A stretch of DNA of 63,874 nucleotides, counting the filler, from Phoronis australis (lineage: Eukaryota > Animalia > Phoronida), in the NCBI GenBank assembly GCA_002633005.1. It is 14 parts of 14 records of this genome, joined end to end, with 100 filler letters (N's around TTAATTAATTAA, not from the genome) between each part and the next. Parts side by side here need not be neighbours in the genome. Positions count along the whole stretch, not along the records: positions 59,175 to 61,558 come from NMRA01003698.1; positions 61,659 to 63,874 come from NMRA01003790.1; 12 more parts are not named here. One strand, written 5' to 3'. A program made the translations under genes and the position numbers. Under the pieces are notes generated by a model that searched no databases, was not told the origin of the DNA, and saw nothing but the letters and a program-made list of their open reading frames with translations. Position 1 is the stretch's first letter, and every line of letters starts with the position of its first letter. This document shows positions 5,323 to 63,874 of this stretch, in pieces.

Positions 5323-5638
5323 CTGACAAGCAGCTGCAAAGTGGTGCCACCTGGCAGGCAGGGAAGAGACGGCTTACCTGGCCGAGACGGTCGCGATGGC
5401 CCCAGGGGCGAAACAGGCGACATTGGTCCTAAAGGGGAAACAGGTTGGCGCGGGGATACAGGGTATAAGGGAATCGCAGGTGTGAAAGGGGATAAAGGGT
5501 CATCTGCGTTCGGTCGGGATGGAGATTTAGGGCGTCCAGGCGTTGCAGGCAGAAAAGGATCTCAAGGTGATAAAGGTACAACGGGTATTCCTGGAAAAAA
5601 AGGCCACAATGGAGATGCAGGAGAAGCGGGACAGCCTG
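5323..5638 (+). CDS. CTHRC1: CTHRC1-like, exon 2 (collagen Gly-X-Y domain)
   Basis: TATAG acceptor, then LTSSCKVVPP followed by ~31 Gly-X-Y triplets with one AF interruption. Donor G|GTAGGT is in phase 1. Confidence 0.9.
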
Positions 5639-8600
5639 GTAGGTAGAAAAGACCCCGGATGATGCTAGTAATTACACGGTGCCGCACTCATTAGTACATT
5701 CAATCATAAAAACGGCTCACACATGCACGCGGACCTTTAGCTCACCGAGCCACAAGCACGGCTCATCGACCACCAAATACGGCAATCCGACCGCCAAACT
5801 TCACCGTCACAATCTCACAAACACGAAGGATAAGCATCCAATACCTCGTGCCCGTACGCACAAACTCGGCTCACTGACTTCAAGACCGAGTACACCTCGT
5901 TGGGCGGTATGCAAGTCCACAGATACACGTTTTTGGGAGCGCAAGCCGTGCTTAATAAGTCCAGCACCGACTTTGTTAGTGGTCGGTGAGCGTGTTTCAC
6001 AGGCAGGCGATCGGAATCTCTTAATGTTCATTACTATCATGCGCACACCCAGCGTAAGTAATTGGGGCCCCAATTTTTGAGAAAGTGAACAACTAAGATT
6101 CAGAGGTACTTTCAGAGTTATGAAGTGTGCATTCGACGAATTTTGGTTGTTGCTGCCTTTTAGTGGACTTTTATCTCCTTTTCTACCTTTTTTCGGCGTT
6201 TTTGTTTCCGTCTGAGGCGGACCCTTTAGCCTACTTTGCCAAATGAGGGGATCTTGTACGAGCCTCCCGAGCCCCCTCTAGATGCGCGCATAACTATAGG
6301 TGCGTTCCGCCGACATTATAGGCTTACATCAGTCATACACCTGTACACTTGTGGCAATAAATTCCGATAATTTAACATTCTAAGCTCAAGGACCAGTTAC
6401 TTCACTGGCCACCATTTTGTTACCACCAGGTTACGCGAGATAGGCCTCTAGGACTCTCACGAAGCCCTTGGCTTTCACTATTGTAGTATTGCTCCTGCGT
6501 GATCTAGCGAGCGTTTCTTGCACAAAATTCAACACCCTGCAGTTGCAACATCAGGAAAAGTAATAGTATGATACATACAAAGACAACTATTGTAGTATGG
6601 TATACAAACGTCATCTGATATAGTGTGATAGTATTCTTATGCGATTTGGATGGATATCTTGTTTTAAACTTACAAGAGCTATATGCAGACGTGAAAGGTT
6701 TGAGCATTACTTCAATAAGAGAAAATAAGATTGACGACGTCAATTAAGACAAAAGCGACACCAGTGAGCTCCATTTCGATCACAGAATTAACATAGAAAA
6801 TAGGAAGTGTAGAAAGCAATATTAAAACAGTCCATTCCGACCATTCGATTGCTTCAAATGCCGTACTCCAAGGACACATTACCAAAGCCAGGCTCAATTG
6901 CACACAAATGTGCTGGTAAACAAAAGCAGTTGTTAAAATAATTGAGCAGATAAGGATATTGACTGTCGTGAACTGTTTATTGTTTTATAAGGGGCATGGT
7001 CGTTTTTACGTTAGTTAAGGATATCTCCGCGATTTATCCAGTGAGACTTTATTTCGCCAGCAAAGTGCTGCTCAGGTTGATAGTTCGGTTCCGCGTTGGG
7101 GATGATCTAAACAAAACATTACTTTTCTTGCCAATAAATTGAAGACCTCAAAAAGAATAATAGAGGCCGGAACCGGAGCCAAAATAAGAAGACCCACAGA
7201 TTGACTGAAAGTCGATAAATATATGTTATCGCACATACACAGGAATACTACAGCCATATTCCATCGAGAATTCAATTCATCTGGGAATCATCCCATCAAG
7301 ACCGAAAACCTATCTATTCCTTATATATAGACTTATTTGCATCATCGTGGCAATACCTTGTTGCCGTGTACTCCGGCTTGTTGTTATACGACGTCATATT
7401 ATGCACATGTATGCCAAGTACGGTACCCAAGACCGTTAAGCGACCAGACAATCTGTGAATGTGTTGAATAACCAGTAAAGTTTTATTTCATAATAAACTA
7501 ATCAGAATTTTCAGTTTGTGAAACATGCAAGTTAAAGCGCTGAACCATTCAATAATATCAAACGTTTGTCGAAAACTTAGAAACAGCCCATCCGGGAATA
7601 TAGAAATTAAAACATTTCCTGGACCGAGTTGTGCAGGAGTGTCTTAGCTTCTGAACTGTAAATAGAAACATTTTCCCTGGCTGATCACATCATTAGAAAA
7701 TAACGGTGGAAACGGTGCTGATTTGCAGAACTTGAGGAAAGGATTGTATCGCAAAAAGCAGGGGAGTATGTTGCCAGCAGATAATTGTCTCAGTGAAAAT
7801 CACATACTCGTTATTAGGTCTTAATTTCCAGTATATACCTTAGTTCTCAGTGTAGATATACCTTATGCATCCATAAAGAAACGTTTTCGTTGGATTTCAG
7901 TTAGATTTTTGGCTGATTTTGCTGACCGGGGACGCTACTTAACTTTACCTATTTATGATGACCCAGATCGAAACTTCAGCGAGAGCCAAAAATAACCGCC
8001 TGATCACCGTTCGTCGGAATTTTCATCAGTAATTTTATATGTTTTTAGAGAATTAAGACTGCATTTTTAGGAACAACGCCTTGGATTGATGATTTGGGTA
8101 ACAGAAATGAACGAGCTCAATCAAATTTGGCGTTGCACACACGAATTTACTCCAGCAGGAGACTGCTCACCAACCGTGACTGAAACTATATAGCTTTTAC
8201 CGTTGAATACGGTCTCTACCGTGGTATACGGATTGGCTCTACTTCACCGTATTTCACAGTTGATATCGTGAAATAAACAACATCCGTATTTTCATATATA
8301 TTGGATAATTATGCTTATTGCAACATAATGACATGAGATGGCGTAAGACCAAGCAAAATCATTCGTGAGCACATCAAGATGTTAGGGATTCGTTTCGTTG
8401 TGTCGCGAACATGTGTGTTACCTTGGTTATCTCGCAAGATACATACTTGGTCTACGGAACACAGTCCAGGCAGTCTACGGAACACAGTCCAGGGGCCCGT
8501 TTCATGACAACTGACCTAAGACTAAAACACCAAAACTTTGTCTATGTTTACACAGAATTTCGGGCTAGGTTAAGAAGGAAAACGAAAATTCAGAAAAGAT

Positions 8601-10680: not shown

Positions 10681-10873
10681 GAATTTGACTTCGTAAAACG
10701 TGGCTCTAGCACCCTGTTAAGAGTGGCATTCTCTGGAAATACACGGTCGCGGACGAGATACAGATGTAATCGTTGGTATTTCACCTTTAATGGCGAAGAG
10801 TGTTCGAATCCTGGTAAAATCGAGGCCACCGTGTACCAGAACTCGAACGACAACATGCTGAAACCCATGTATT
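10681..10873 (+). CDS. CTHRC1: CTHRC1-like, exon 4 (C-terminal globular domain)
   Basis: Polypyrimidine-AAG acceptor. EFDFVKRGSSTLLRVAFSGN...CNRWYFTFNGEECSNPGKIEA contains the CTHRC1 signature RWYFTFNGxEC. Donor T|GTAAGT. Confidence 0.93.
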
Positions 10874-11466: not shown

Positions 11467-11643
<177 letters not shown>

Positions 11644-17038: not shown

Positions 17039-20000
17039 CTACATGGCTACGCAAAACTTTTTGGAAACGCAACATGGGATAGCAGACAGTCTCTGATTAA
17101 AGTGTCCGCACTTGTAGCAGACAGTAATGCGGCTGGAGTTTGATCACAATGCCTCACTGATTTAGCGTACGAATAGCAGCGGGTTGCAATGTAGCTGATA
17201 TGACCAGAATATCTGGAGCCCCTAAAACATAAAGGGTTTGAGGAAAGAGTGACAATGAAGGCCGAGAGGCAAAGTATTCGTTTATTGTGCTGATATTTTG
17301 CGATTTTATTTGCCAAATGCTCCAGTGTGTTTTGTTTGTTTATATATTGAATTATTTCATAAATTTAATGTCATTTAACGTGTTCAGCTGATGCTGTTCT
17401 TGATCGGGTTGAAACTGGAATTCCAGCAGTAGAGAGTGGTTTTGCTTTGGTCAAGTGACGACAATTATTTTCATTGTCACATGACCGTACACGTGAAAAG
17501 GTTATTGCACGGACGTGTGTGGCGTAAACTGCGTAATTCGGTCTACTTTAATAATACAAAGTTGAAAATTCAACACGCTACTAAATTTATTGACTTTATT
17601 TCCTCCTGTTATTTGTAAAATAACATTTTGTTCTCGTAATAGCATTACCTTAAACTACTCGTAACCCCAACACAAATTAGCCACAGCTGCGAACTGCCAT
17701 GCATTCGGCGACACTAACCAATATATCCATTTCTGCACCAAATAATAACACCAGTCGTTTATCCAAATGACTCTATGTGGCTGTAAAAGCAGCTTAGCGC
17801 TATCAGTAAATCATCAGCAATTGCAATTATTCAAATTGTTCATAATCTGATTAGATAGTGCTAAAAGGTTGCAACTCATGTGCACCGACTACCGCGGGTG
17901 TTGGGCTTGGTGGAAGTGATTTCTAAAAAAATGTTAACCAGTTTATACATGTAGCTTAATGAAAAATAATATTTTTATTTCTTTTNTTTACTCCATAATT
18001 GTCCAGCCGACTCTTGGGGGCAAGTTGTAGTCTCGAATTGAAGAGCTTTTACAGTCGGTGTTGTACAGACATAATACTTACCCTCCGCTTGAATTCACTG
18101 TCATCTCAACAGGTATTTGTCTCTAAATTGATTGACCCCCACGTACCGTTCGCCATTTTGACATTAATAGAGACTGGATGTGAAATAGTTTGGGAAGATT
18201 GAGAAGCACAGGGAAGAATATGACGTTCCCTGTAGAAGAACAGACTGTCGCAACTGCGAATTGTGACAGTTTGCCGCATTTTACTCGCTGCGACACTAAG
18301 TGTTTCGTTGGGCTGCACAAACTACCGCCGCCCTCAAGCTGTCACAGCCGAAAATCAACATCAGGCTGAATGTTTCTGCTTGACGGGATCAAAAGTTAAT
18401 AAACCCCTCGCACCCCAAATTGTGTCACCGGTTATTCGGACAGATTGTTTTTAATAAATCAACGCAATATGATGACGGTGATAATTCGTGCACTTGTGAC
18501 CGCTTGTGGTCTCACAGTGCTCCATGTAGTGAGTACGTGCCAATCAAGCACGGTGGCATGGGCGGAGCAGCACTAAAAATGTGGGGACTATTGTACCTCC
18601 AGTTCCCTACGGTGAGGTCATGGTGCATGATTATTCGATCCCTACTCACAAATGTACTCATTCAAATCATGAAATGCCTCAGGGTTGCCAATAAACACTG
18701 ATGTGGACCACTGACGGACCCTTAAAAGGGCATCGCCAATTTTACGTCCCAAAAACACATTCTACTATTTTTGGATGAGATGGATTTCGTTATTTGCTTT
18801 GGCCAGAGCTAGAAAACAACAAAGTTTAATGTGCCCTGGAATCTAACTTATATCTAATACTCCAAAATCGCATGTGTTATTTTTATATTAACTTAAAGTA
18901 TTCCTTTCTCGCCGTTGTCTGCCTGACAACCACTGAAATCAAGACCGACGACAATACTAAGCAAATGCACGCCATTTAGGGTGTGGGCTTGCTTCTCTTG
19001 CAAAACGTTATAGGTTCAATTCCCCACATGGAATGGTCTTAGAATGTCCTTTTTCTCCTCGAAAATGCTAATTCAAAACCCACAACAAGTTATTATTTAA
19101 ACACATTTTGCACCCCANNNNNNNNNNNNNNNNNNNNNNNNNNNNNNNNNNNNNNNNNNNNTTAATTAATTAANNNNNNNNNNNNNNNNNNNNNNNNNNN
19201 NNNNNNNNNNNNNNNNNCTGGGGGAATTCTGGGGATACATAAAATTACAGTCATCCTTCACTTAAGGTAAGTTCGTCTAACTGTATAATTTTATTACGGT
19301 AGTATTTGTTCAAGCTGGAAGGAATTAAAGACATAAACGGCTGTCTAAGGTATCCCTCTATGCGCAAAAGATACTTATAGCAACATGACTTAGATGGTTT
19401 AATCAGTTTGAGGCATAATTTGCCAAAAAAGCTTCTAGTGTATAGAGGGCTAACTTATGGGAGGGCCACGTCTCTACTGTCGCCAGTTGAGCCGGTGGTA
19501 GTGTCTATACAAATACGATTTGATTGGGTCTTAAGTGTAATGAAAGCGAGTAACGCAGACAAATGAGAATGATTTAACAAATGAACATTTTGAGTTGTCT
19601 CTGCATTATTAAAATAAATCTTGAAAAGCTTTATGGCACCTGATACAACCTTGGATGCTCTAAGCAAGTCAATAAAAATAAGCCCTCTTCTAGAGTCGAT
19701 GTGAACAGTTGGTGAATTTGTAAACTTACCTTACCAAGTGACAGCAATTCTGAAAGAAAGGAGTCGGCAAAGAAACTTGCATGTGTGGAAATACATCATA
19801 ACATGTGTGCCTCATCCAGTATCACGTTGAAATAATTGAGTTAAGATAATTTGTAGCTGTTTTACTTTATTACGTGGAAATTTATGGAAAGTATAGAGAC
19901 TATTGTGTTCCAATAGTTCTTGTAGAACTGTGCGTGTTGGTCTCTCATCTTGCAAAGCACGACGCGGTGACTTTTTCATTCTGGTTTTCAATCTGGGAAA

Positions 20001-21647
20001 ATGACGATACGGTGATACTCAAAACCTGTCAATCTATCTTTTGTCACTCCGTCAGATTTTGAGTTAGGGAGCTCATGCTAAATTTTTGATCACGAATTTG
20101 TTCAAATGTTGAGCACTACACTTTGGTTGCCCTTTGTCTGTTACTATACAATAGTCCTTTTTATTGAAGGTGGTAAATTTGCACTGAGTTCATTTATGCG
20201 ACTGATGAAGGATTTGTTAAGTCTGAGCTAGATGTAGAGGTCATTCTCTCATTATTGTTAAAGGGAGACGTGTGAGTCTAGCCATAGAGAATAATGTCCG
20301 TATAGCAATGTGGGTAAAACAGAATCAGAATGTCCATTAAATGATCAGGTGAGAAATGGATTCCTTGGTATGTTTCGTAACTCTTACAAGCACAAACCAA
20401 GACAACATTAAGACGTGTAGCCAAATGCATGGTATATGGAGAGACGCTGAGAAAAATGTTTTTAAACCTAATTTACTCTGATAAACTTGCACACACACAN
20501 NNNNNNNNNNNNNNNNNNNNNNNNNNNNNNNNNNNNNNNNNNNTTAATTAATTAANNNNNNNNNNNNNNNNNNNNNNNNNNNNNNNNNNNNNNNNNNNNT
20601 GGCTCGTTAGACCCCGACGTCTGTGTGAATAATCGTTTGATGTTAGACTGAGTAAGTGGCCCCCACTAAGACTGCGCTACTGACTTCGGCGACGCCAGGT
20701 CATCTAAGCACAGCAACTTGTAGGATGTTGCATGCAAGTGGAAGTGTCGAGATATGTGGCATTGTATTTTAACTTAATTGTCTCTAATAGATGTAATTTT
20801 GTGATTTGAAATATGCACCCATCACCGTAAGGTAAATTTCCTGTGGCAATGTACTGTACGTCTCGGGGTCACAACGATGATGTCATTTGCGTCTATTAGT
20901 ACGAGCACCACCTACAGTTTTTCGGTGCTAAATGGGGTTCCTGATGGGGTCGCACGATAGTAATTGGCGTAATTAGTTGATGTCTGGAGTAAAGGAAGGG
21001 ATGATATGTTTGTGTCGATCAATGATACATATATCTAACATGTTCAAAAGTCACTTGGCCGTTATATGGTGTCTTTGATATATTTTGGTACCGACACTCG
21101 TCATTTTATTTTTACTATTTTATATTCTTATTCGTTGGTAACTGCACGGCATTCTAGCATCTATTTTATTTATGTGATCTTGTATGACTATAGAAGCATC
21201 TACCAGTCTTCTCCCCATGATTTTTTAGTTTTAAATGTTGGGGGGTCAACATGCTCAAATTTGACCCTTTCACTGCTATGGTACAGTGCTATTAGGTGGT
21301 TGCAGCATGAAAGATGTTCAATCGATACATTCTTATTTTGCAGTGTTGTGCCACAGCAGTCAGAATCTTGCCATTATTATGAAAGTTACAACCTAAATAA
21401 TGACGCAAAACATTCACAATTAAATATCACCAAGAGCTCAGAACGCTTTGTTCTCTGTCCCCTTTACTATTGCGATTGTGTTTCGTCAGTCCCCTGCGCT
21501 CACAAATGCTGGTGAGAACACTGATCTACTCTTCCATTTACTCTTTGCATGCACAATACTGGGCTTGAGGATCATCAGTCACTGACTTGAATTAGACATA
21601 GAGGCTCTCTGCTTGCTTGTAAACGTCTTCTTTTTTGCTTCGTTTAG

Positions 21648-21814
21648 TGCTAGCCACAGAGAAAAAAGCTACCTTTAAAAAATATGATGAGATCGACGCA
21701 GCTCCCGAGGAGAAGGCGCGTGGGATTACTATCAACGCTGCCTGTGTGGAATACTCTACTGAAAACAGACATTATGGCCACGTTGACTGTCCCGGTCATG
21801 CTGACTACATCAAG
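21648..21814 (+). CDS. TUFM: Mitochondrial elongation factor Tu, internal exon
   Basis: TTTAG acceptor and AAG|GTATAC donor. [46 protein letters not shown] carries the EF-Tu switch I and G3 motifs. Confidence 0.95.
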
Positions 21815-22443
21815 GTATACAGAGCTATGACTTGCTTTCTGTGTTGTTACTCTAGTTAAATATGATATAAACTTGATAGACACTCGAAGATGGCATTAAT
21901 TTTCAAAGCTCTGTACATTGTTTTAGCAAGTTTTTTGTGATGTTATGTATTTACTTCTCAAGGGCTGGTGATCCAGAAATATGTTTGTGTATATTCATAT
22001 ACACATATACATATATCAGAGTATCTTGGCAACAAATTTTCCTTGAGACGACAAAGCTTTGTTGATCACGACGTTCAGTATATTTTTTATGGCCTTGACA
22101 GATTAGAGCCTAGGCTGTGATTTTGTTTTTAGACATTTTAGTAATGCCATTCACTTAGACCGTCGTGTAAAATGCCTGATATTTTCGAGATCATGGATTG
22201 TGAAAAAAAAACGATTCCATACGAGCAGTTGGTCAGTCAGTACTGTGACATAATGTGGGGAATGGCACTGTTGCGGTAATGGTCAGTCTTCAAGTGTGCA
22301 AGATGTTTATTGATACTTCAGGAAAGTTTTTGAGGAATGCGTCTACGGTAATGTTCTTTAGGTGAACGAATGTCAATACGCCTTTAATAACAAAATTTAT
22401 ATCTCTGCGTGTGACGTATAATACATAATACTGTTGTTTTCAG

Positions 22444-22548
22444 AACATGATCACAGGAACGGCACAGATGGAGGGAGCAATACTTGTTGTGGCTGCAACA
22501 GATGGCACTATGCCACAAACAAAAGAACACGTGCTCCTCGCTAAACAG
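22444..22548 (+). CDS. TUFM: Mitochondrial elongation factor Tu, next internal exon
   Basis: TTTTCAG acceptor and CAG|GTATTA donor. [35 protein letters not shown] continues the previous exon in frame. The remaining exons were not found (spacer at 23849). Confidence 0.95.
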
Positions 22549-23285
22549 GTATTAGGGCCAAAATTCACCTTATTTGGTTACTGTCTGGAAGAGATTGTGT
22601 AAAACCTAGTCTAATACAGGAAAACACTTAACCACGTTCAGTCGCCAGAGCAACTAAAAAGGCACTGGGCAAGAGCAAGCGAATCCCACTTGGTCATGTG
22701 GGATGCCATTAGCAAGTGGCAGGACGAGGCCGTGACTGAAATCACCCAAAACGGGGTATAGTGTCCTTTTAAGCAGTGCTTGCACTTCAGCCATAGTGTT
22801 TGTTATCTTTGCATACATTTGTGTTGCAAAATTGTCGTGTACTTTTGTGGTATTCGTTAGTCTTGCATAACGTATGTCATTGCCAGTTGCCCCAGTGCTC
22901 TACATTAGTCGGTGACGATTTGTATGAATTTTTTCAGGGCATTCATTTAATTTCTTAAATATTGGGTTTTGTTTTTCTATCATAAACATCAAAAGTGACT
23001 ATTTACCGGAATTGACGTTACGATAGTCTGATTTCATCACCTTGGGGTTATGTGGGACCCTGTAAAAATGACATGTAACTTTTGTGTACCATGCTTTATG
23101 TACTAAACGCTGAAAGGAATTGTTTTAAAATGTCCTACTTTTCTGTGAAGGATAACTAATATGGGACTTGTATGTTTTTCATGAAACAATTCAAAGTTCA
23201 CATAAAACGCATAACGAAATGATGATTTAGAAAGCTGCATCACAGAGGTTTCATCTTGAACATTTATGTCAAACAAAAATTAGCC

Positions 23286-23848
23286 TTTTTATGCGTCCAC
23301 ATATTTATATGTGGACGCATTATGCCGTCATCTCCGTCCGTCCATCCGTCCGTACGGGCGGCGTCCGTCCGGCGTACGCTGCTCTATCTCCAAAACCCTT
23401 TGACATATGTTCATGAAATTTGGCACATATGTTCCATTCATGAATGGGACGGCATGCCCGAACTTTCAGACGGATCCGACTACCGGTGTGCCCCCTAGTG
23501 GCAATTTTATTTTTCTACGCTTACCTTTGTATCTTCAAGAGTCCTGAATGGATTTTCATGAAATTTGGTATGTAGGCACCTAAATTAGTGAGATGACACT
23601 ATCCTCCCGTTTTCAGATGGATTCGACATAGTTTGCGCCACCTAGTGGCCATTTTTAGTGTTTTCGAGTCCACCCCTCTATCAACCAAACCGCTCAAAGG
23701 ATGATTGTGAAAATTGGCATGTATATGCTTACTATGTAGAGGACGGTTGACGATGATTTTTCGACGATTTCGACTACTGTGGCGCCTCCTAGTGGCAGTT
23801 TTGTTTTTTTTTCGCCTATGGCTGTATCTCCTAACCCGTTCGCAGGAT
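23286..23848 (+). mobile_element. Helentron-associated (HINE/DINE-1-like) non-autonomous element, 5' part, in a TUFM intron
   Basis: T-run, then the palindrome ATGCGTCCACATAT-TT-ATATGTGGACGCAT, a (CCGT)n-type microsatellite and ~150-bp monomers with CCTAGTGGC. The monomers are the reverse complement of the 37.8-40.1 kb array. Confidence 0.75.
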
Positions 23849-24232: not shown

Positions 24233-24860
24233 TTTTTATTTTGTTTTTAAGTTTTTAAGTTTATTTGCATAAACTGATATTAACAAAGGAATACAGTAGA
24301 AAAGAAAACGATCACAAACACAAACACATTCACTCTCACATTCACACATTCCAGCTCTGCTTGAATTTATACTGAATGTATAATGGTTTCAAAAAATCCC
24401 AGCAAGTCAGGGAGTAATTCTCTAGATTTCATACTTTTCCATGTCTTGACAGTGTCAAATAAAATTGAGTGAAACCTCTGAAGTACAGGAATACATGAAG
24501 ACTTCGAACAAGTCTATATAAAGTACTGAGCTAATGTTAATACGTGATTAATTTCGTAGCCATGGTCTCCAAAGTATGCAAATAGCAGGACACGCTTTTC
24601 AGCCAGTAACAGGTTAGCTCCAACGACGTTTGAAATCCAAGTTTGTAATTTATTCCAAAACGAAGGTACATGCTCATATTCCAAAAACAAGTGATTAAAA
24701 GTTTCTACCACTCCGCAAAATGGGCATTTGTCGTTTTGGACTATTTTCATTTTCTTTAAAAAATATTTTGTGTAAACTTTTTTATGAATGTGATAATACT
24801 TAAAAACTTTCAAATGAGTAAACAGTTTAAAAGGCACAATATAAATCTGTTTAATTTCTG
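24233..24860 (-). mobile_element. 3' fragment of a non-LTR retrotransposon (L1/Tx1-like), zf-RVT region
   Basis: ORF 24514-24837 contains KCPFCGVVETFNHLFLEY.HV.SFW, the C-terminal CCHC region of an RT ORF2 with the last Cys lost. It is followed by a (TG)-rich 3' UTR and an A-rich tail. Confidence 0.8.
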
Positions 24861-26689
24861 GACAGCGAATAATTCTAATAAACTGTCTTCTACATCATGA
24901 ACTGATGTCTCTCTGGAGAGTAATACATCTTTTGTCCATCGCGTATCAATCCGATTCGGTGCAAAGTCGTGCATGCTGCTGGACTATCTGAAATTTTCAT
25001 TGCCTTGGCCAGAGCAATGTACTTTATCCAATTGCTTAATTAGTCTCTTTCCTTTAAAACCTCCCAGGACAAATATAATGCACAGTAAGAAAGAGCAATT
25101 GGCGTGTGTGAACTACTAGCAACTTTGGCAGTGTCGAGCATCAACATGTAACTGATCACATGGAACCCTATATTACCGACCTCTGGAGGACGAGGGGGCA
25201 ACGTCACTTATGTTCAAAACGCATTAAGTGGAATCACAGGCATTTCATGCGGCCAACAATTTCCCCTATGCCACCGACTGCGAATGTCATGGTGAAGTAC
25301 CTTCTGGACAACTGGTGACAAGTCACTGGTCTCACGTAATCAGCTTCAATTGCTTGCGTAAGTGCCCCCTTGGAACTTTACATGTTGAATGTGACGTCAT
25401 TGGACAGAAAGTTCTCTGTCTCAGTACCGGATTAAGGTTTATCGGGACCTCGATCTATGAAAATTTTGGGGGGCCCTAGTCATTGCAATTACTCCCCTTA
25501 GCCATTATACCTCCTCATGGTTGCCACAATTTTTAGCTGCCCTCCCCTCCACCCTCCTAGTGGTCTCCTCAGTCGATTGCTGAGGGGCGCCTGTGATGAC
25601 CTGTATCTTCCGAGACCCCGAGCTTCAGCTTTTTGGATTGCTCCCCCGTTTCAAGAACTTTTAATAGCTCTTGTAGGGACGATATTGTCTTCCACTGTTT
25701 TGCTCAACGAATAACCCGGCACTGTAGAGTTTCCAGACTTTGGCAAGTGACGTCAGCCGAATTTGAATGGTGATTACTATAGACTTGCCTCAACTTCGTC
25801 TTCATGCAGATCACGTAATAATTGAAAGTCCTTATAATTGGCACACAAACGATCCATCTGCCAAGTCAAGTTATCAAGACTTGCCAGCTGTTCCCAAGTT
25901 CAGGAAAGGCCACAGCACAACGGAGAACTACGAGATCAACTTACTGCCGCAAATGAATATTACATGGACATGTACCTCACGGCATAGTTACCGACATACA
26001 GTTAGGCCAAAGCTCACTGACTTGTAATGTACGTTAAAAGTAATAATGAGCGTAAAAATACAGGGTGATTCTTTCCGAAAGGAGCATCAAACTTTTGCAA
26101 ATATTTTTCCAACAAAGGCAGGAACTTCAAATTTCGCACACTGTTATAACGTATTGAGCTCAACTTAAAGCTGCTGTTGAACGTTTTTTAAAGCTTGCAT
26201 TTCGGCGTTGTCTTCGCAGCGGTTTTCCCGATGCTCGTTGAATTTAGTCCAACGATGAAAGAAGGGGCGTGAAATTATGTTTATAACGATGGCGTAGCTA
26301 AGCTGACGAGGTATTCTAATTATTAGACAAGGTGGCACTGAATAGTTAGGCTGCGGCCGCGGCCAATTTGCACTGCCAAAATATAGAAATTTTGGGGTAG
26401 GCCAAGTTTGGGGGCATTTTGTAGGTGGGCATTGCACGTAGGCTCAGTGAATGTGGTTTGTTTGTATTTGTGAACATGCTGTGAATAAAAAAGGCCACTT
26501 TCTTGGCTGTAGCTGCACTCTTCTTCAAGATGGCGGCCCCGGCTGCAATTGTGCAATGTTGGGTAGCGACCGAGAAATTGGCTGTGATTTTAGGTAGCCC
26601 TCAAACAAGCAAGAATTGCCAAAAAACTAGTTGGTTGACAGTACTTTTGGACCACATTTTCGGAATCGGTAGGAAATTTGCTTTCAGAC

Positions 26690-28329: not shown

Positions 28330-29459
28330 TAAGCTACCTATACTGTCCCTTTAAGGATATGTAGGACCAGAGAAAGATGCCCAAATTTGGTTAACTTTGC
28401 AACATTATATCTCAGAAATGGCAGGCTAAATTTTAATAGAACTTTCGTACATTATGCTCTATGCACAGTGCTCCAAAATATTGCTAGGAATTGTCTTCAA
28501 AATGATCCACTTTCACATGAGGGGCTATCAAAAATGGACTGTAAAAATTTTTGAGATTTCACCAAGAATGTTTAAATATCAAACAAAATTTAGTCATGTT
28601 GCTGATATTGTTGTTTTGCTGTGAATGTTTCTTCTCTTTTGCTCAAATTTACTAAAAAGACATGGTCATGTTTCGGGTACACAGAGGCAGACCACAAAAA
28701 AAAACAATAAAAATGGTCACAAGTGGTGCGGAGTGTCAAAGCCATCCCAAAACGGGAAGGTGCTATAGTCTTCATAACAGAAACTAGTTTGCCATAAACC
28801 GTCAAGGATTTCTGAAGATACAGAGGCAAAGGTAAAAACTAAAACTGTCACTAGAGGGCACAGCGGTAGTCAGAGCCATCCAAAAGTCGTTGGCAGCTGT
28901 CGTCACATTTATTGGTCTTGATAACAATTGCAAAATTTTACAAAGCTTCTGCAAAAGATTAAGAGGACTTAACCACATTATGCAAAAAGATAAAATCACC
29001 ACTAGGGGGTGCTACAGTTGTCAAGCCTGTACAAAATCAACATCAGTCACAGCCTTCTCATCAGAAACACATCTGGTAAGTCTTTAAAATGATCCTATGA
29101 GTGCTTTGGTGGATAGAGAGGTGGATGCCAAAATGGACATAACATTTTTTTAAATGCCAAGTCTATATAAAAGGAGAAGGCGTTGTCATCTCCATAATAG
29201 GTACCTACTTGCCAAATTTCATGCAAATCTATCACGGAACTCCAAAAATACAGAAGCAGACGTAAAATAACTAAAATTGCCACTGGGGACACAGCGGTTA
29301 TTAGACCAGTTCGAAATTTACCATAGTCTGCTGCCAGCGTCATAGGAACACACCTGCCAAATCTCATTGATTCCATGCAAGGGGTTTAGGAGATACAGCT
29401 GCAAATGGCAGATGCTTAAAGGCGACTGCAATACGCACCCATATGTGGGCACATAAAAA
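28330..29459 (-). mobile_element. Diverged HINE-like element with degenerate ~150-bp monomers
   Basis: The minus-strand head TTTTTATGTGCCCACATATGGGTGC resembles the head at 23286. CACTAG(A/G)GGG motifs recur at ~28850, 29000 and 29280. Confidence 0.55.
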
Positions 29460-33424: not shown

Positions 33425-34629
33425 TACAATGCTTGTGCTGTTCAGAGTTCGACGAGGCCAAGCCACTACTGGACATGGTTAAGTGGACCTCCGGCATACC
33501 GCTGACAGAGGAACAACTGTCCCACTTGCCAGAGTGTCCCGCGACACACTCCCACTGGATGGTGACCTGAGCACCCAAACTGCTTACATCGTGTCGTGTG
33601 ACTCCCTCGCCCCACACCTGGCACCTTCTAAATAGACAAGTCCACAATAAACTTATCAAAGTGTGGCTCACCGATCTGTTCACTGAACGATGAACTGTCC
33701 TCTTCACTGTGTGTCGAACTGGGCCTGTAATCACTCCCACTACTCAATATCGCTGCAAGGCTGCTTAGAGGCTCTGGACTAGAGAAAACAGCACAGGGCG
33801 AATCACAACTGGTTCCAGGAATTGCACGCTCTGGGGTACGTTCGGAGGCACGGGTGACAGTAGATGAAGTGGCCTCCACTGGCTCCAGTCACTGTACTGG
33901 CCACAGCTCGCGAGGCTTCTCGCTTCAAAAACGCACTTCTCGGGTGTGGCGACGGGGCACTGCCGGAAATCAACACAGACGGAGTTTTAAAGGCTGGATG
34001 GGACACTCTGACTTCGTGACTGGCAGGGACAGGGTGGGCTACTGACTACATGGGCGTGGCGACGGGGCACTGCCGGGAATCAACACAGATGGAATGTCAT
34101 CCTTCTTCAGACGTTGTTTCGCAGGGACCTTCATCAGTTCATCGTACAAATCCTTTTCGTAATCGGACGGCAGAAAGTGCTTGCCACACACACGATAATT
34201 CTCCACTGCTTTGTACGTTGTGTAGACGGGTAACGCTGCGTTCTTCACACGAACGAGCCAAGTACGGCGAAGTGTGTCATCCATCAGAAAGCGATGCAAA
34301 GGTACTCCCAAAGCGCGCGTGAGCCGATAATTAGTACATCCTGGTACGCAGCAACAATGTGGCATGTTGACTGACTAGTAAATGAAAGCAAACGACGACG
34401 GAACTTAACACAACCGAGGGAAAACAATGACTGACTCGGCAGCTCTCACAGTCAGACTATATGAGAAGAAATTGGTGCGAAATGCTTGCCTCCTAAAACG
34501 TCACTTCCGGAGTAGTGGGCGAGTAATTAAAAAAATTACGAAAATCTGTAATTAAGTGGAAAATATGTCTAGAATAACCAATCAACCTTATTTTAGCTCA
34601 AAATGACATGGAAAAGGTTGCCTTCGCCT
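33425..34629 (-). mobile_element. Kolobok-like DNA transposon end carrying a degraded THAP transposase 5' region
   Basis: Terminus GGTTGCCTTCGCCT|TTAA at 34629 lies upstream of the THAP ORF. Downstream, broken frames give KFIV..CLFRRCQ...WECVAGHSGKWDS. Confidence 0.7.
34039..34365 (-). pseudogene. THAP (C2CH) zinc-finger ORF, transposase N-terminus
   Basis: MPHCCCVPGC...LHRF...RRTW...RVCGKHFLPSDY...RLKKDDIPSV shows the THAP C-C-W-C-H pattern and an AVPTIF-like box. It ends in a premature stop, with a ~45-bp local duplication (33945 vs 34056). Confidence 0.9.
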
Positions 34630-37777: not shown

Positions 37778-40091
37778 AAATACTAAAATTGCCACTAGAG
37801 GCAAATACTAAAATTGCCACTAGAGGCATACCGGTAGTCATGCAGAATCATTATAAAGTCGTCATCGTCCGTTGTCAACATCACATAAATACACTTGCTA
37901 AATTTAGTAAAGATCCTGCAAACGGTTTGGGAGATACAGCCATGGGCGCAAAAAAAACAAAACTGCCACTAGGAGAAGCAATTGCCACTAGAGGCAAATA
38001 CTAAAATTGCCACTAGAGGCATACCGGTAGTCAGAATCATCCTAAAGTCGTCATCATCTGTTGTCAACATCACATAAATACACTTGCTAAATTTAGTAAA
38101 GATCCTGCAAACGGTTTGGGAGATACAGCCATGGGCGCAAAAAAAACAAAACTACCACTAGGAGGCGCCACAGTAGTCCAAATCGTCTGAAAATCATTGT
38201 CAGCTGTCTTCCTTGTAGTAAGCACATACACGGCAATTTTCACAATCATCCTTTGAGCGGTTTGATTGATAGAGGGGTGGACGCAAAAATACAGACTCGA
38301 AAACACTAAAAATGGCCACTAGGTGGCGCAAACTATGTCAAATCCATCTAAAAACGGGAGGATAGCGTCATCTCACTAAAAGGTGCCTACATACCAAATT
38401 TCATGAAAATCCGTTAAGGACTTGTGAAGATACAAAGGTAAGCGTAAAAAATCAAAATTGCCACTAGGGGGCACACCGGTAGTCGGATCCGTCCAAAAGT
38501 CGTCATCTGCCGTTGTTAACATCATATAAATATACTTATACAATTTCGTAAAGATCCTGCAAACGGTTTAGGAGAGACAGCCATAGGCGTAAAAAAAACA
38601 AAACTGCCACTAGGAGGCGCCGCAGTAGTCGAAATCGTTGGAAAATCATCGTCAACCGTCCTCTACATAGTAAGCATATACATGCCAATTTTCACAATAA
38701 AATACTTAAATTGCCACTAGAGGCATACCGGTAGTCGGAATCATCTTAAGTCGTCATCGTCCGTTGTCAACATCACATCAATACACTTGCTAAATTTAGT
38801 AAAGATCCTGCAAACGGTTTGGGAGATACAGCCATGGGCGCAAAAAAACTGCCACTAGGAGGCGCCACAGTAAGCAAAGTCATGGGAAAATTCAGCGTCA
38901 ACCGTCCTCTTCATAGTAAGAACAAACATGCCAATTTTCACAATCATACTTATAGCGGTTTGGTTGATAGAGGGGTGGATGCCAAAAAACAGACTCAAAA
39001 ACAGTAAAAATGGCCACTGGGTGTCGCAAACTAGGTCGAATCCATCCGAAAACGGGAGGATAGCGTCACCGCACTAATAGGTGCCTACACACCAAATTTC
39101 ATGAAAATCCGTTAAGGACTTGTGAAGATACAGAGGTAAACATAAAAAAACAAAATTGCCACTAGGGGGCACACTGGTAGGTGGATCAGTCCAAAAGTCG
39201 TCATTGTCTGTTGTTAACATCATATAAATACACTTATTAAATTTCATAAAGATCCTGCGAACGGTTTAGGAGATACAGCCATAGGCGCAAAAAAAACAAA
39301 ACTGCCACTAGGAGGCGCCACAGTAGTCCAAATCGTCTGAAAATCATTGTCAGCTGTCCTCTTTATAGTAAGCACATACACACCAATTTTCACAATCATC
39401 CTTTGAGCGGTTTGGTTGATAGAGGGGTAGACGCAAAAATACATAATCGAAAACAGTAAAAATGGCCACAAGGTGGCGCAAACTATGTCAAATTCATCCG
39501 AAAACGGGAGGATAGCGTCATCTCACTAATAGGTGCCTACATACCAAATTTCATGAAAATCCGTTAAGGACTTTTGAAGATACAAATGTAAGCGTAAAAA
39601 AATTAAAATTGCCACTAGGGGGCACACCGGTAGTCGGATCCGTCCAAAAGTCGTCATCTTCTGATGTTAACATCATATAAATATACTTACACAATTTCGT
39701 AAAGATCCTGCGAATGGTTTAGGAGATACAGCCATAGGCGCAAAAAAAAACAAAACTACCACTAGGAGGCACCACAGTAGTCGAAATCGTTGGAAAATCA
39801 TCGTCAACCGTCCTCTACATAGTACACATATACATGCCAATTTTCACAATCATCCTTTGAGCGGTTTGGTTGATAGAGGGGTGGACGCACAAAAACAGAC
39901 TCGAAAACACTAAAAATGGCCACTAGGTGGCGCAAACTATGTCCAATCCATCTGAAAACGGAAGGATAGCGTAATCTCACTAATAGGTGCCTACATACAA
40001 AATTTCATGAAAATGCGTTCAGGACTTTTGAAGATACAAAGGTAAGCGTAAAAAACTAAAATTGCCACTAGGGGGCACACCGGTAGTCGGA
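37778..40091. repeat. Satellite-like array of ~150-bp monomers with ~450-bp higher-order period
   Basis: GCCACTAG(G)-type motifs recur every ~145-160 bp. CCAAATTTCATGAAAAT-type landmarks fall at ~38394, 39092, 39544 and 39998. The same family occurs at 23286-23848 and 50908-51004. Confidence 0.92.
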
Positions 40092-49799: not shown

Positions 49800-52148
49800 C
49801 AGATTGCTTTGTACACGTCAAATTATAAAAACCGCGAATCGAAATTTGGCCAAGAAGCACGCTAGGGCCTACTTATCATTAATAGTTGGGCCTGCTCAAT
49901 GAGATAAATATAACTACATATACAGCTCAATGGGCCTGCTACTCCGGCAAATGAACACTGATGACAAGCACGCGCTCGCTCACTCGGTGCACACCTGTTG
50001 ACTCACTTCAATACAAACGTCACGTAACAAAATATGTGTTCGTCCAGATTTTTCTCGTTGCGGGGTGCGATCTAGCGCAGATTTTTACTTAATCTGCTTT
50101 TAATCCACCGGAACTTAGAATCTTAGAAAAGGCTATTTGGAAAACTTAAAGGAGGATTTCATGTAACTTGAGTCGAAACTATTTTTACTCAAGAATTCAA
50201 GTTGTCCTATCGACGATTGCAAAGCAGCGACGCATCACTGAGTCGGCAAGTTTTCGCCCTGGGATTTCAGCACAATTTTTTTTAAAAGATCGTAATTTAA
50301 CAACAGAGTTTGATAGCAATGCACCACAGTTTTGTAGACAGTCTGTCATAGGTTACACGTACGTCACAGCGCGTAAATTTGATGAATCCTAGCTTCCGAG
50401 ATTTCACCCGTTTCGGAGACCGGGTTTTAACCGCCGTAGGCTACAAAAAGCGTCCCCCTGGGCGCTTATTAAGGCGAATACGGTAGCCCTAATAAATGGT
50501 GACATCAGTGCTCGAAACGATGATTTTTATATAACCTAGCAGCAAGTTTGTGGTGACTGGCTCCAACGGCCGGGTGACTGAACTTCGGGCTGGGCGAGTA
50601 GATTTTCTGGCTCCCGCACTCGCCCAGCAGGGTTTTTCAAGACTAAAAGCCTGGGTATATCCCTGACTTCCACACTTTCCAAAAGAGGGAAAACTACGAA
50701 GGAATGGCTGAGGAGGGTAAAAGTCTAGTTGCCGTGCGTATTGGTATGTTTTTTGGAGATCGATTCAATATCAGACAACTTGATTTTTGGTGACGTTGAT
50801 AAGTCTTTTGACCACACCACCTTGCAGGACGATGCCATGTTTGTCAAGGCGCCTCGTTTTCAATCAACACGACAGCAGCGCCCCGCATTCGTGAAATAGG
50901 TGAATGACGATGATTTTCCACGACTTCGACTACTATGGCGCCTCCTAGTGGCAGTTTTTTTTGCGCCTATGGCTGCATGTCCTAAACCGTTCGCAGGATC
51001 TTCANNNNNNNNNNNNNNNNNNNNNNNNNNNNNNNNNNNNNNNNNNNNTTAATTAATTAANNNNNNNNNNNNNNNNNNNNNNNNNNNNNNNNNNNNNNNN
51101 NNNNATGATAATATGCATTTTTAATTAAACAAAATTAAATTGGACCCTAAAATTTCAACAAATTTTAAATCCATTTCATTCCTATCAAATAATATAGAAA
51201 CTGAGAGGTGTTGTGTTGGTGACTATCCAAAAAGAGCATATTTGTATTCTAAAATGTTTTGATGCACTGCAGCGTTGACTGAACATTTATTTTGGTGAAA
51301 TATGTAATTTTCTAAAAATGAAACTGATCACAGCGCCCCCACGAGGTAGTAAAAGTGTAACAAAAAATATTTTTGAAGAAAATAGGAAAAAATGACTCTA
51401 TCCCCAAAATTGAAGTAAATTAAATTTTAAAACTATTCTATATTATTTTAATGAAAATATTTTACCAGGTTTGGGCCACTTTTTGTAATTTAGAGAAGTT
51501 TTGACTGGTTCTGTTGAATACATTTGACCAATCAGGTTCGAGTTTAGGTTGAACCCTGGAAAGGTCAACATGGTTCTTGAAAAATGACTGAAGTTACCTT
51601 TTTAGAAGTGTTCCTAAATGGAAATGGTGAGATGAAGTGAAAAAATTTGATCAGGAATGGATTAGGACATGATAAGTGATTATGACATTGAGTGTACACT
51701 TTCAGGATTTTTCCAGGTGAGAGAGTGGCGAGGCAGTAAATTAAAAAAAGTACATTTTCTCATATTTTTGTCAAAAAAATAAAAAGTGTACACTCAGGGT
51801 TGAAAGCAGAATTTTGTAGCAAACAGTTTGATATAAATATCATTAAAATCGGTTCAGTAACGGCCATTTAACAGCTGAAAGTTTGACCCCTACTGAAAGT
51901 CACAAGAATTTACCGGTGAGTGAAAAATTTGTGAAGTGCTCGCTTTACTTCAATTTTTAAAAATACTCATTAATGTCCAATTTATTTGTAATGGATATCA
52001 TTAGAAAGAAGAAAAATTAAATATTTTACTGGTATACTTTTCATTTTCCACCACTTAGTATGCTAATAGATATGAGCTTGTGAAAATCATGAAAAATGGC
52101 AAAATTTCGCTCTTGCTGAATTTCCGCCATATTGGTTTGCTCACCCTA

Positions 52149-52302
52149 CCTAAGGTGTTCCTCTATGCGCAAAAGGTATTTATAACAACATGACTTTGAT
52201 GGTTTAGACGGTGCAAGGCATAATTCGCCGAAAAGCTTCCGGCGTACAGAGCGCCTATAGCCTCTACATCGCCCCTGCTTCGGGCCAACAGAGGCGATGG
52301 TC
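52149..52302. repeat. Interspersed repeat arm in intron 1 of the helicase gene
   Basis: Near-identical reverse complement at 63702-63855 and a diverged copy at ~19345-19447. Confidence 0.88.
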
Positions 52303-52351
52303 CTTGCCTACAAGTAGACGAGTTGATGACAACACAAGAAACCAAACTCAC

Positions 52352-52495
52352 TTGTGGTAATTGCGTGGTTTTCCCACTGCCTGTTTCACCGATGAGTATG
52401 ATTGAGTCATGTTGACGTACTTCAGCTGCCAAGCGATGTTTCAAAGGAAAAATTGGAAGGGCCTGGCGTTCAGCGTCAACGTTTTCATGTCTCAT
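52352..52495 (-). CDS. DHX33: DEAH-box RNA helicase, first coding exon (DHX33-like)
   Basis: MRHENVDAERQALPIFPLKHRLAAEVRQHDSIILIGETGSGKTTQLPQ has the LPI motif and Walker A GETGSGKTTQ. Donor CAA|GTGAGT; in-frame stop upstream of the ATG. The family call is secure; the paralogue assignment is tentative. Confidence 0.8.
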
Positions 52496-60987: not shown

Positions 60988-62731
60988 TATCAGTTCCACA
61001 AATGTGCCAAGTCACATTTATTACCCCACAGTTGGCTCATGCCTCCCAAAAACAATTACATACGACTCACAAGCGCTAACAAATATAGTAACAATTTTTC
61101 TTCACAGATATGTGCATAAAACCACATCCAGATCTGTAGCTTTACAATAGCTTCGCAAATGAGAATTAACAAAAGCGGCAGACAGAGGTAAAAGCACTAT
61201 GATTCTGCTAAAAAGTAATAAATCTCAACAATGATTCAACTGTAAATAAGACCTCAAAAGAATATAAATACTTGCAAAATATGATCATTATATTTGTCCC
61301 AATTGGTGACTAAATTATTAACCACACCGTAGCGCTAGTGAGAGAGTAGTCCTACATATACAAACACACATACATGCAAGTAGTCATGTGGTACATTTAT
61401 TTCACTAACATCCCCACCATGCTGATTATCAGGGCCCGGTCTCCAATCTCCGTACTCAGACTCGAATCATGCTCAAACTCAAACTTCATACTCAACTCGA
61501 GTACAGACTCAGCTTTGGTGTATTCAATGTCATACTCAAAAAATCTGTACTCGAAATTNNNNNNNNNNNNNNNNNNNNNNNNNNNNNNNNNNNNNNNNNN
61601 NNTTAATTAATTAANNNNNNNNNNNNNNNNNNNNNNNNNNNNNNNNNNNNNNNNNNNNCCAGTGCTGATTGTGCGTGTTGGGTTCTGCTTCCCTCTGCTA
61701 TGGAACTGCTTTCAAACAAACATAGCCCCACCTTTTGAGCAATTTCGTAACTCTTCACAAACCCAATAATATGTACTACTGCATCAAACAAAAAAATACT
61801 TGTGAAACATTGGATTCTTGATAATAGTTTATGGTTTATCCACGCATATATTCTCATATACTAACTAGCTAAATTTGCAAGTGACCCAACTGCATTTCAT
61901 GGATTTGTGCAAGTTATTGTGGCGAAGTTTTCTTCAAAGCAACGTACCTAGTAAGTTGTCATGGATAGTATATTTGAGAATGATTTATTTGACCTTATTT
62001 TTACAAATTTCTCAAATGAGTTGAAAACAGAAATATAAAAACAAAACAAAAATAATGGATCAACTGAAATTTTTTGATAAAATCACATCCTTTGTCAACA
62101 GAAACAGAAATAAAGTAAAATCAAGCACGATATGACAAATAACATTCGACATGTGGTGTAATGAAAATGTTAGATTACAATGACAAATCTCAAACCCCTA
62201 ACAGCTCTGGCTTGGGGACTCGGTCATTAGTCAAAGCTACGACACTAATAAAGGACTGCTAATATTTGACAATTCCAAAGTGTACTATCCTGGAAGAAAA
62301 ATTCTTGTTCGTTCTGATGATATACATATTTCATAAACTTAATTATTGACAAAAATAGTGGTTAATTTTGCATTCTTCTCCACCTACCTACAATGTCAGG
62401 TTCGGTTCATTAAAGCCATTTCCATATCACACAATAAAAGCACACAAACAAGTGGTGGAGACTTTAGCTCATCAAACATCAACCAGACACTTGAATCAAT
62501 TAACTGCAGGTGCCACAAAATGATAATTTGAGTAATACATGTAGATATGTAATTACTAGTACAATTACAACCCATACATTATACCGCGAAACACAAAAAC
62601 ACTAATTAAGCATTTGCTGCAATTGCTAAGGTAAAGATCTACAATAGTCGCAATAAGTGCAGTCACAAATGTTGTAGATGTGCTTGCGGTGAATTATATG
62701 AGCCTCTGTTAGCTATTCGCTAACGGGCAAT

Positions 62732-62804
62732 TGCCTATTAGCTGAATGGTTAGCATGCTTGCCGGGTTTTATGGGGGTCGCGGGTTCGATCCCCGGGTCG
62801 GGTG
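62732..62804 (+). promoter_or_regulatory. tRNA-like Pol III internal promoter in the 5' LTR
   Basis: A box TAGCTGAATGG (62739-62749) and B box GGTTCGATCCC (62783-62793) at tRNA spacing; T-arm CGGG-TTCGATC-CCCG. No clean anticodon arm. Confidence 0.85.
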
Positions 62805-62824
62805 ATCTCGGCTATTACTACAAA

Positions 62825-62838
62825 TGGCGTAGTCGGCA
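62825..62838 (+). promoter_or_regulatory. Primer-binding site complementary to tRNA-Ser 3' end
   Basis: TGGCGTAGTCGGCA lies 2 nt after the LTR and is the reverse complement of ...TGCCGACTACG-CCA, the 3' end of metazoan tRNA-Ser(AGA/TGA). Confidence 0.85.
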
Positions 62839-63042
62839 AACGGATGATCTACCGATGAAGCACTGCCAACTAGTACCCACGGACCTCGGGACGGCGTGCG
62901 TGGAAGGTTCCAGGAGTCAAGGACCTGCATGAGAGACAACCTTGTGTTCACCTGTGTTGTGGTGGTAAAGGTACCAAGGGACGTTGATGACCTGTATGCG
63001 AGACATCCTGGTGTTCACCTTCCTGTCGCGTGCCCGTTCCGT

Positions 63043-63056
63043 AGGAAGGGGGGGAA
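63043..63056 (+). promoter_or_regulatory. Polypurine tract
   Basis: AGGAAGGGGGGGAA immediately precedes the TGT of the 3' LTR. Confidence 0.9.
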
Positions 63057-63530
63057 TGTTGTAGATGTGCTTCCGGTGAATTATATGAGCCTCTGTTAGC
63101 TACTCGCTAACGGGCAATTGCCTATTAGCTGAAGGGTTAGCACGCTTGCTGGGTTTTATGGGGGTCGCGGTTTCGATCCCTGGGTGGGGTGATCTCGGCT
63201 ATTACTACACAAGAATATGCACCAAAATAGATGGAAGATTGTTTCTTGTAAACGGTGTTAGTGACTGAATCAGTGAGTGGTAAGGACAATGATCACCATC
63301 TCTAGCTGGCTCCAGTCGGGACGGTGAAGCTCCTAAAGGAGTGGGCGCAGTAAATATAGGAGGATGTGCAGTGTAAAATTAGCCAGCTGCCGAGTTGGGC
63401 TATACTGAATAAAGGACTGCTTGAAGAAAAAGTTTGATTACGGGAGTATTTCTATTTGTTGAGTTGGATGCAATTAAAATACATCGAGGCCCGAGGCCGA
63501 GGGCCTCTAGTCTATATGCCAAGGACGGTG

Positions 63531-63855
63531 ACCTCTATACGTAACAACATGACATGTTATAATCAATATGACGTATAATTTGCAGAAAAGCTTCCGGCGA
63601 ATGAATCATGTACCATCTCTACTGAGTACTGCCCTGAGGCCAGCTAGACGGTGGTCACTGAGACCAATCCAATGCTATTGTCTATGAGTATGATAGGCAA
63701 TGACCATCGCCTCTGTTGGCCCGAAGCAGAGGCGATGCAGAGGCTATAGGCGCTCTGTACGCCGGAAGCTTTTCGGCGAATTATGCCTCGCACCGACTAA
63801 ACCATCAAAGTCACGTTGTTACAAATACCTTTTGCGCATAGAGGAACACCTTAGG
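63531..63855. mobile_element. MITE-like element with long diverged inverted arms
   Basis: Left arm CCTCTAT..TAACAACATGAC...ATAATTTGCAGAAAAGCTTCCGGCG is mirrored by right arm CGCCGGAAGCTTTTCGGCGAATTAT...GTCACGTTGTTA...ATAGAGG. Confidence 0.6.
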
Positions 63856-63874
63856 AGGTTTTCGATGTGTTTAA

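Follow-up and report, generated by a model that had tools for sequence, protein, structure and literature searches.

A multi-copy, Helenus-type LTR retrotransposon of Phoronis australis with a tRNA-like putative promoter and a hairpin–palindrome module in its LTRs

The Phoronis australis genome (GCA_002633005.1) contains a non-coding LTR retrotransposon of the Helenus type, located at positions 62670–63209 of the window, the 63,874-nucleotide stretch of DNA that was analysed, on the piece beginning at 61659 (NMRA01003790.1). We hold with good confidence that this element belongs to a multi-copy family with a 4-bp target-site duplication (TSD), is likely transcribed by RNA polymerase III (Pol III) from boxes in its 5′ LTR, and is likely copied by tRNA-Ser-primed Gypsy enzymes of the host. 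Of this reading, the anatomy, an empty site, many different flanks and the primer complementarity are observed directly. The features of the element are as follows.

62666–62669, plus strand: 5′ TSD copy, CAAA, identical to the 3′ copy at 3/4 positions
62670–62822, plus strand: 5′ LTR, 153 bp, TG...CA
62708–62724, plus strand: hairpin 1 of the 5′ LTR, 6-bp stem and 5-nt loop
62719–62742, plus strand: 24-nt imperfect palindrome, 11/12 pairs, with a perfect 10-nt core at 62726–62735
62732–62804, plus strand: tRNA-like segment, 73 nt, with box A at 62739–62749 and box B at 62783–62793; unscorable as a tRNA
62767–62770, plus strand: T4 run between boxes A and B, a candidate leaky Pol III stop
62823–63056, plus strand: non-coding interior, 234 bp
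62825–62838, plus strand: primer-binding site (PBS), 14 nt, 2 nt past the 5′ LTR, complementary to the 3′ end of tRNA-Ser
63043–63056, plus strand: polypurine tract (PPT), 14 purines, abutting the 3′ LTR
63057–63209, plus strand: 3′ LTR, with hairpin 1 at 63095–63111, palindrome at 63106–63129, tRNA-like segment at 63119–63191 and T4 at 63154–63157
63210–63213, plus strand: 3′ TSD copy, CAAG

The two LTRs, each 153 bp and bounded by TG...CA, are 94.8% identical, with eight differences divided equally between transitions and transversions (4 + 4; K2P 0.054), and two changes specific to this copy fall in the boxes of the 3′ LTR, at 63134 (box A) and 63171 (box B). Between them, the interior begins with AA, followed by the PBS, and ends in the 14 purines; it includes a 32-nt direct repeat (62922–62953 and 62989–63020, 88%), and its predicted fold is unremarkable (z −0.28; 118/300 shuffles equally stable). 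With a total size of 540 bp and two LTRs, the element lies below the 1000-bp limit for TRIMs. In six frames, no stop-free stretch exceeds 83 codons, and the three longest frames of the element (83, 81 and 76 aa) returned zero Pfam matches in a scan that covered 149 of the 222 stop-free frames of at least 62 aa in the window. The initial annotation had described a 540-bp LTR–PBS–interior–PPT–LTR unit lacking gag and pol, and the 153-bp LTRs, PBS, PPT and absence of a Pfam domain bear this out. Within the window, we found no other copy or solo LTR.

The PBS is identical over 14/14 positions to the start of the template oligo for human tRNA-Ser (PMC3299991), and by eye 13/14 positions pair with Aplysia tRNA-Ser-TGA, two as wobbles (Kojima Fig. 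S2C, PMC10886601). Self-priming was considered and is ruled out because the longest self-complement to the PBS region reaches 6 nt at most; the tRNA-like part of Helenus elements likewise lacks self-complementarity to the PBS (PMC10886601). A retrozyme was also considered, and this reading was abandoned because Rfam gives no ribozyme match over the element at E ≤ 10. Across the whole window, Rfam returned zero matches reaching the gathering score.

Evidence for insertion comes from a DNA run (X1), in which the joints 62665>63210 and 62663>63208, represented by two contigs each, describe a single junction. This joint skips 544 bases, equal to the 540-bp element plus one 4-bp copy. TSD length, which the initial annotation had proposed as a check, is 4 bp by both the CAAA/CAAG flanks and this skip. 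One locus in one sample thus shows an unoccupied site and a target duplication of 4 bp; the site may be an allele or a paralogous flank. As a probably polymorphic insertion, the locus is usable for testing Pol III transcription in vivo.

The empty site also bears on whether the unit is a retrotransposon at all. Two tRNA-derived SINEs or tRNA pseudogenes duplicated in tandem around unrelated DNA would account for the lack of coding sequence and for the imperfect TSD of the assembly (3/4). Such an arrangement does not explain the TG...CA ends, the PBS 2 nt past the first repeat or the PPT abutting the second; there is no A-rich tail, the interior is repeated too, and the empty site lacks exactly the unit plus 4 bp. 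Because of that empty site, and barring a misassembled joint, the tandem arrangement is refuted, and we consider it extremely improbable.

Reads and contigs place the retrotransposon in a dispersed family. Exactly before 63057, ragged ends stack in 48 X1 contigs whose sequence there is diverse (agreement 0.36), and the same position collects 85, 72 and 88 ragged reads in three RNA runs; behind 62822, there are 33 and 135 such reads. Summed contig depth is 47–89 over the left flank versus ~10^3–10^5 inside the element, this depth not being a copy number. Since DNA contigs and RNA reads both show varied flanking sequence beginning exactly where the LTRs end, the family is multi-copy and dispersed, which disposes of the prospect of a single-copy unit raised at the outset.

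Each LTR contains the ~70-nt tRNA-like segment with A and B boxes that the initial annotation reported, and the boxes follow canonical tRNA spacing: T8 of box A is 62739, T54 of box B is 62785, and position +1 is 62732. In the window, the combined A and B pattern occurs in the two LTRs only, and shuffled LTRs reproduce it in 6/20,000 cases. Both box changes in the 3′ LTR are peculiar to this copy, as reads carry the canonical letter at 63134 in 278/282 cases (114/115, 86/89 and 78/78 by run) and at 63171 in 86/87 (32/32, 25/26 and 29/29). A variant inside box B sits at the degenerate position 60 (62791). These counts are from the 40 of 228 family variants listed, so box conservation covers those alone; at the two deviating positions, the canonical letters prevail.

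The segment is not a working tRNA. ARAGORN found 0 tRNA genes in it, the RF00005 search suggested in the initial annotation gave no match to the LTR segment at E ≤ 10, and Rfam detected the T-arm alone, through the tmRNA model (9.1 bits). Its folding is ordinary, with z-scores of +0.52 and 0.00. Rfam likewise gave no 5S rRNA match over the element at E ≤ 10, and the boxes are of the tRNA type. The LTR has no evident TATA or polyadenylation signal, and only ~60 nt precede the boxes.

The element has two T4 runs only, 62767–62770 and 63154–63157, the first being the TTTT between boxes A and B that had been pointed out before. For human Pol III, T4 is a very efficient stop in vitro, although some leakage occurs in cells (PMC3141230); given that efficiency in vitro, the 5′ T4, which lies early in the predicted transcript, could abort most transcripts. 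The earlier remark that the interior lacks T4 is correct, but its use in support of Pol III read-through did not survive, because 4,392/5,000 shuffles (88%) lack T4 as well and the absence is uninformative. The 383 nt between both T4 runs are free even of TTT, as in 78/5,000 dinucleotide shuffles, which is suggestive, with bounds that were set post hoc.

RNA data were drawn from three runs of one study, with ~18–19% of each run used. Coverage of the element runs in both directions at a depth no greater than that of an unrelated repeat (63656–63874), 76–82% of the placed reads continue into unlike sequence, and no stacked RNA starts or ends were seen within the element in the three runs. On account of the two-way coverage, the reads running on and the lack of stacked ends, the pattern fits passive inclusion in longer RNAs, and it is compatible with the presence or absence of a short Pol III RNA.

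This pattern is also what would be expected if the boxes were passengers, relics of an old SINE insertion in a TRIM transcribed by Pol II from U3 or through host-gene read-through. The T4 inside the tRNA-like segment is in keeping with relic boxes, as is Kojima's remark that use of Pol III by Helenus lacks validation (PMC10886601). Relic boxes would not be expected to retain exact T8–T54 spacing, to show the canonical letters in nearly all reads at the listed positions, or to be conserved across Helenus (PMC10886601); the mere ~60 nt 5′ of the boxes and the absence of an evident TATA or polyadenylation signal also argue against Pol II. We regard Pol II transcription with relic boxes as quite unlikely and retain Pol III transcription as the favored reading.

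Just upstream of the tRNA-like segment, the initial annotation had placed two small hairpins, and both were recovered (62708–62724 and 62726–62735). The second is the core of the 24-nt palindrome, which arises in 13/10,000 shuffles and has no exact match in a metagenome collection; the pair of hairpins arises in 15/5,000 shuffles and in 5/759 window tiles. The palindrome is centred between 62730 and 62731, adjoining the predicted +1. Its right arm is tRNA positions 1–11 and ends in box A, and its left arm, the reverse complement of those positions, doubles as the 3′ arm of hairpin 1. Judged by sequence, the two hairpins form one module, in which the left arm is predicted to be able to pair with box A or with the upstream hairpin. 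The two local states are near-equal in predicted energy (−12.3 and −10.8 kcal/mol), and the left arm with the transcript 5′ end gives a predicted duplex of −14.5 kcal/mol. For the 10-nt core, the predicted values are −16.4 between two molecules versus −2.6 kcal/mol as a hairpin, a comparison in which any palindrome favors the dimer. In the full-length fold, the pair probability is 0.18 for the core hairpin and 0.77 for hairpin 1. A family variant at 62724/63111 (C to T) changes the closing pair of hairpin 1 to G·U and converts the sole mismatch of the palindrome into a pair; it occurs in all three RNA runs, in up to 92/169 reads (X8).

These elements suggest the following cycle for the favored Pol III reading. 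TFIIIC would bind boxes A and B, with Pol III starting near 62732. A fraction of the polymerases would pass the T4 at 62767 and stop at the T4 at 63154. The predicted RNA would be ~426 nt long and, like that of Cassandra, would carry a short terminal repeat (R), here of ~39 nt. Since +1 falls inside the palindrome, the full hairpin–palindrome module would be present in the 3′ part of this RNA only. There, since the left arm repeats nt 1–11 of the transcript in inverted form, it could find a partner in the 5′ end of the same RNA, in the adjacent box A copy or in a second RNA. Such pairing would favor dimerisation or circularisation and so assist both packaging in particles of a Gypsy helper and transfer of the minus strand over the short R; the Gypsy reverse transcriptase and integrase would finish the cycle. 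The likely role of the module would be that of an RNA dimer or 5′–3′ pairing signal. Speaking against this order of steps, the dimer palindromes of Ty1 and Ty3 are near the 5′ end, whereas the intact core here would be near the 3′ end.

We then surveyed the module in the animal consensus LTRs of Kojima Data S1, read by eye. The core was defined as 8–12 self-complementary nt ending 1–3 nt before box A, with G·T allowed. By this definition, 54/76 non-wasp animal Helenus LTRs carry it (PMC10886601 Data S1): 18/18 from chordates, 33/51 from bivalves, 3/3 from nemerteans, 0/3 from Lingula and 0/1 from a ctenophore. The core-bearing hosts include bivalves, nemerteans, coelacanth, sturgeon and carps; the families are not independent, as 14 ostariophysan fish LTRs count as one lineage. 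The 18 negative bivalve LTRs are a separate LTR type with a GC-rich, acceptor-like stem. Most core-bearing LTRs also have the left arm and the upstream hairpin, which are degenerate in some. In an overall reading by eye of the wasp Helenus LTRs, the module was not seen; several of these (e.g., Helenus-3_NVit) have a different, single long hairpin just 5′ of box A.

Core sequences vary between families with pairing kept, as in GGGTTAACCC, GAAGTACTTC, GGAGATCTCC and GGCTGCAGTC. The non-standard pairs seen by eye in the cores are plus-strand G·T only, with no A·C, under a scoring that permitted G·T. In sturgeon and paddlefish, A is replaced by T at box A position 9 and T by A in the arm; in Helenus-1_PiIm and Helenus-2/-3_PiNo, box A reads TGGC and the arm GCC. 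Judged by eye from such consensus sequences, the left arm appears to track box A across families.

The palindrome might instead act on DNA, by helping to position TFIIIB or to open the strands where Pol III starts, or might have arisen repeatedly by fold-back copying of the RNA's 5′ end. Its centre lies within 1–2 nt of the predicted +1, as DNA-level action would have it, and template fold-back yields precisely a left arm that is the reverse complement of tRNA positions 1–11. A protein-binding site, however, would not leave the core sequence free to vary between families, and plus-strand G·T without A·C, within the limits of the scoring just given, points to pairing in RNA. Fold-back would produce perfect palindromes and leaves the common upstream hairpin unexplained. 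We place action on DNA or convergent origin on the unlikely side.

Returning to the module as an RNA signal, a possible and tentatively held reading is that one old lineage of TRIMs driven by Pol III, recognisable by a conserved RNA switch, is common to bivalves, nemerteans, coelacanth, sturgeons, carps and the phoronid. The switch would consist of a start-site palindrome whose left arm switches partners among the upstream hairpin, box A and the 5′ end of the same RNA, serving as a cis signal for an uncapped, very short-R Pol III transcript to dimerise or circularise in a Gypsy particle. If true, this reading would replace the separate molluscan and fish origins that Kojima suggests for Helenus, and would give TRIMp3 elements their first named signal for packaging or strand transfer. 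The module, at a fixed distance from box A, offers a test of single versus multiple origins; it is a candidate cis signal for how TRIMs stay helper-dependent, which Kojima describes as not known (PMC10886601), and a search pattern for further families. The main text of Kojima, figures apart, contains no mention of a hairpin or palindrome (PMC10886601), and our literature searches found no description of the module, so that, as far as the literature was searched, the cross-phylum module appears to be unreported.

Apart from the element, the window contains host exons and other repeats. Its contigs are joined by 100-base linkers at 17 places (16939–61658), each linker comprising 44 N, a 12-mer (TTAATTAATTAA, at the two linkers read) and 44 N. 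The window strings together short contigs, and neighbouring pieces are not necessarily adjacent in the genome. The following coding features were identified.

5344–5643, 10681–10872 and 11497–11640, plus strand: Cthrc1 exons, collagen repeat and CTHRC1 C-terminal domain
21647–21814 and 22441–22551, plus strand: two exons of a mitochondrial-type EF-Tu
24517–24894, minus strand: zf-RVT fragment (LINE 3′ end), from Pfam
34042–34374, minus strand: THAP domain fragment, from Pfam
52352–52495, minus strand: one exon of a DHX33-like RNA helicase

The Cthrc1 exon is at most 58% identical to any match, and 46–50% to Lingula. Cthrc1 is a patchy family, reported among spiralians for phoronids and brachiopods and not for molluscs, nemerteans or annelids, and also reported for deuterostomes, priapulids, cnidarians and sponges (PMC7058181). 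For the EF-Tu exon, the closest named animals are a nemertean (92%) and a chiton (88%), in matches crowded by bacteria; the DHX33 exon is 57–64% identical to all top matches. A very abundant, unclassified ~160-bp repeat is present at 63694–63855, 52149–52310 and 19345–19450, with an internal hairpin at 63705–63737. DNA contigs and RNA reads both cover it heavily, and reads link 63451 to the repeat on the opposite strand. A 454-bp tandem array of ~3 copies spans 37787–40091, and its unit recurs elsewhere in the window, at 23462–23848, 28701–29399 and 50905–51002, the pattern that a satellite of mobile-element origin would be expected to show.

Among known systems, the closest is Helenus, the tRNA type of TRIMp3 (Kojima 2024), comprising TRIMs below 1 kb with tRNA-like LTRs, PBS and PPT (PMC10886601); the LTR-tRNA promoter design was therefore already described. 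The phoronid element shares with it a size below 1 kb, two LTRs with TRGCY..YGG and GGTTC, a tRNA-like part that is no functional tRNA, PBS, PPT, the lack of an ORF and a dispersed, repeated family, and with animal Helenus the 4-bp TSD; animal Helenus families use PBSs common to Gypsy elements (PMC10886601). Unlike the element, no listed family is sized 153/234/540 bp, and the known Ser-primed families rely on different tRNA-Ser ends. Searches of the Kojima supplement found control motifs but neither the PBS motif nor the palindrome core of the element; line wraps there may hide inner matches, although a PBS stands at the start of an entry. The initial annotation had allowed for an exact match to a described Ajax or Helenus family, and none emerged by size, motif search or the animal consensus read by eye. 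On sequence grounds, the element agrees with Helenus in every testable respect and matches no listed family, which makes it a new family. With it, the class described in 2024 gains one family, a primer type not seen there before and a probable new host; two later papers only cite this class (PMC12859917, PMC13570524).

The module-bearing families are Helenus-1_MoPh, -1_LimFor, -2_MyGa/-2_MoPh/-2_LimFor (mussels), -1_CGi, -2/-3_PiNo, -1_LiLo, LTR1_LCh and LTR-11_DR, in which hairpin, ~10-nt palindrome and box A follow one another in the order and register of the phoronid element. Helenus-1_MoPh and -1_LimFor share with that element the 8-mer GCTAACGG at the left arm, and the mussel Helenus-2 group is similar in LTR (141–156), interior (226–268) and Ser primer. 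Differences lie in the core sequence (GGCAATTGCC) and in one additional base on each side of the core, and there is no evident interior similarity by eye. The T4 inside the tRNA-like segment is a further difference of the phoronid element, a T4 at the matching place not being general, by eye, among module-bearing Helenus.

Ajax, which the initial annotation gave as described from a phoronid, is the 5S type and is from two nemerteans (PMC10886601), so that the phoronid attribution was wrong. It resembles our element as an animal TRIM with a small-RNA promoter and an LTR of 154–163 bp, and differs in being 5S-derived, with a 5-bp TSD and a tRNA-Leu primer (PMC10886601). The bivalve biv-TRIM, with interior hairpins and no canonical PBS, is a different element (PMC6934838). 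Cassandra also has a Pol III promoter inside each LTR, and its transcript is reported to run from the 5′ to the 3′ small-RNA segment, which leaves a short R of 18 bp (PMC7215508, PMC10886601); in contrast to the predicted transcription here, that of Cassandra is validated, in plants and from a 5S (type 1) promoter. Finally, Ty3 has PAL6, a 6-nt dimerisation palindrome at a hairpin apex near the RNA 5′ end (PMC11381356), and Ty1 has the RNA dimerisation palindromes PAL1 and PAL2, also near the 5′ end (PMC6844567). Those palindromes are experimentally tested and lie in Pol II transcripts, unlike the predicted 3′-proximal core of the phoronid RNA; as a functional analogy only, all three are short self-complementary sequences in the RNA of an LTR retrotransposon.
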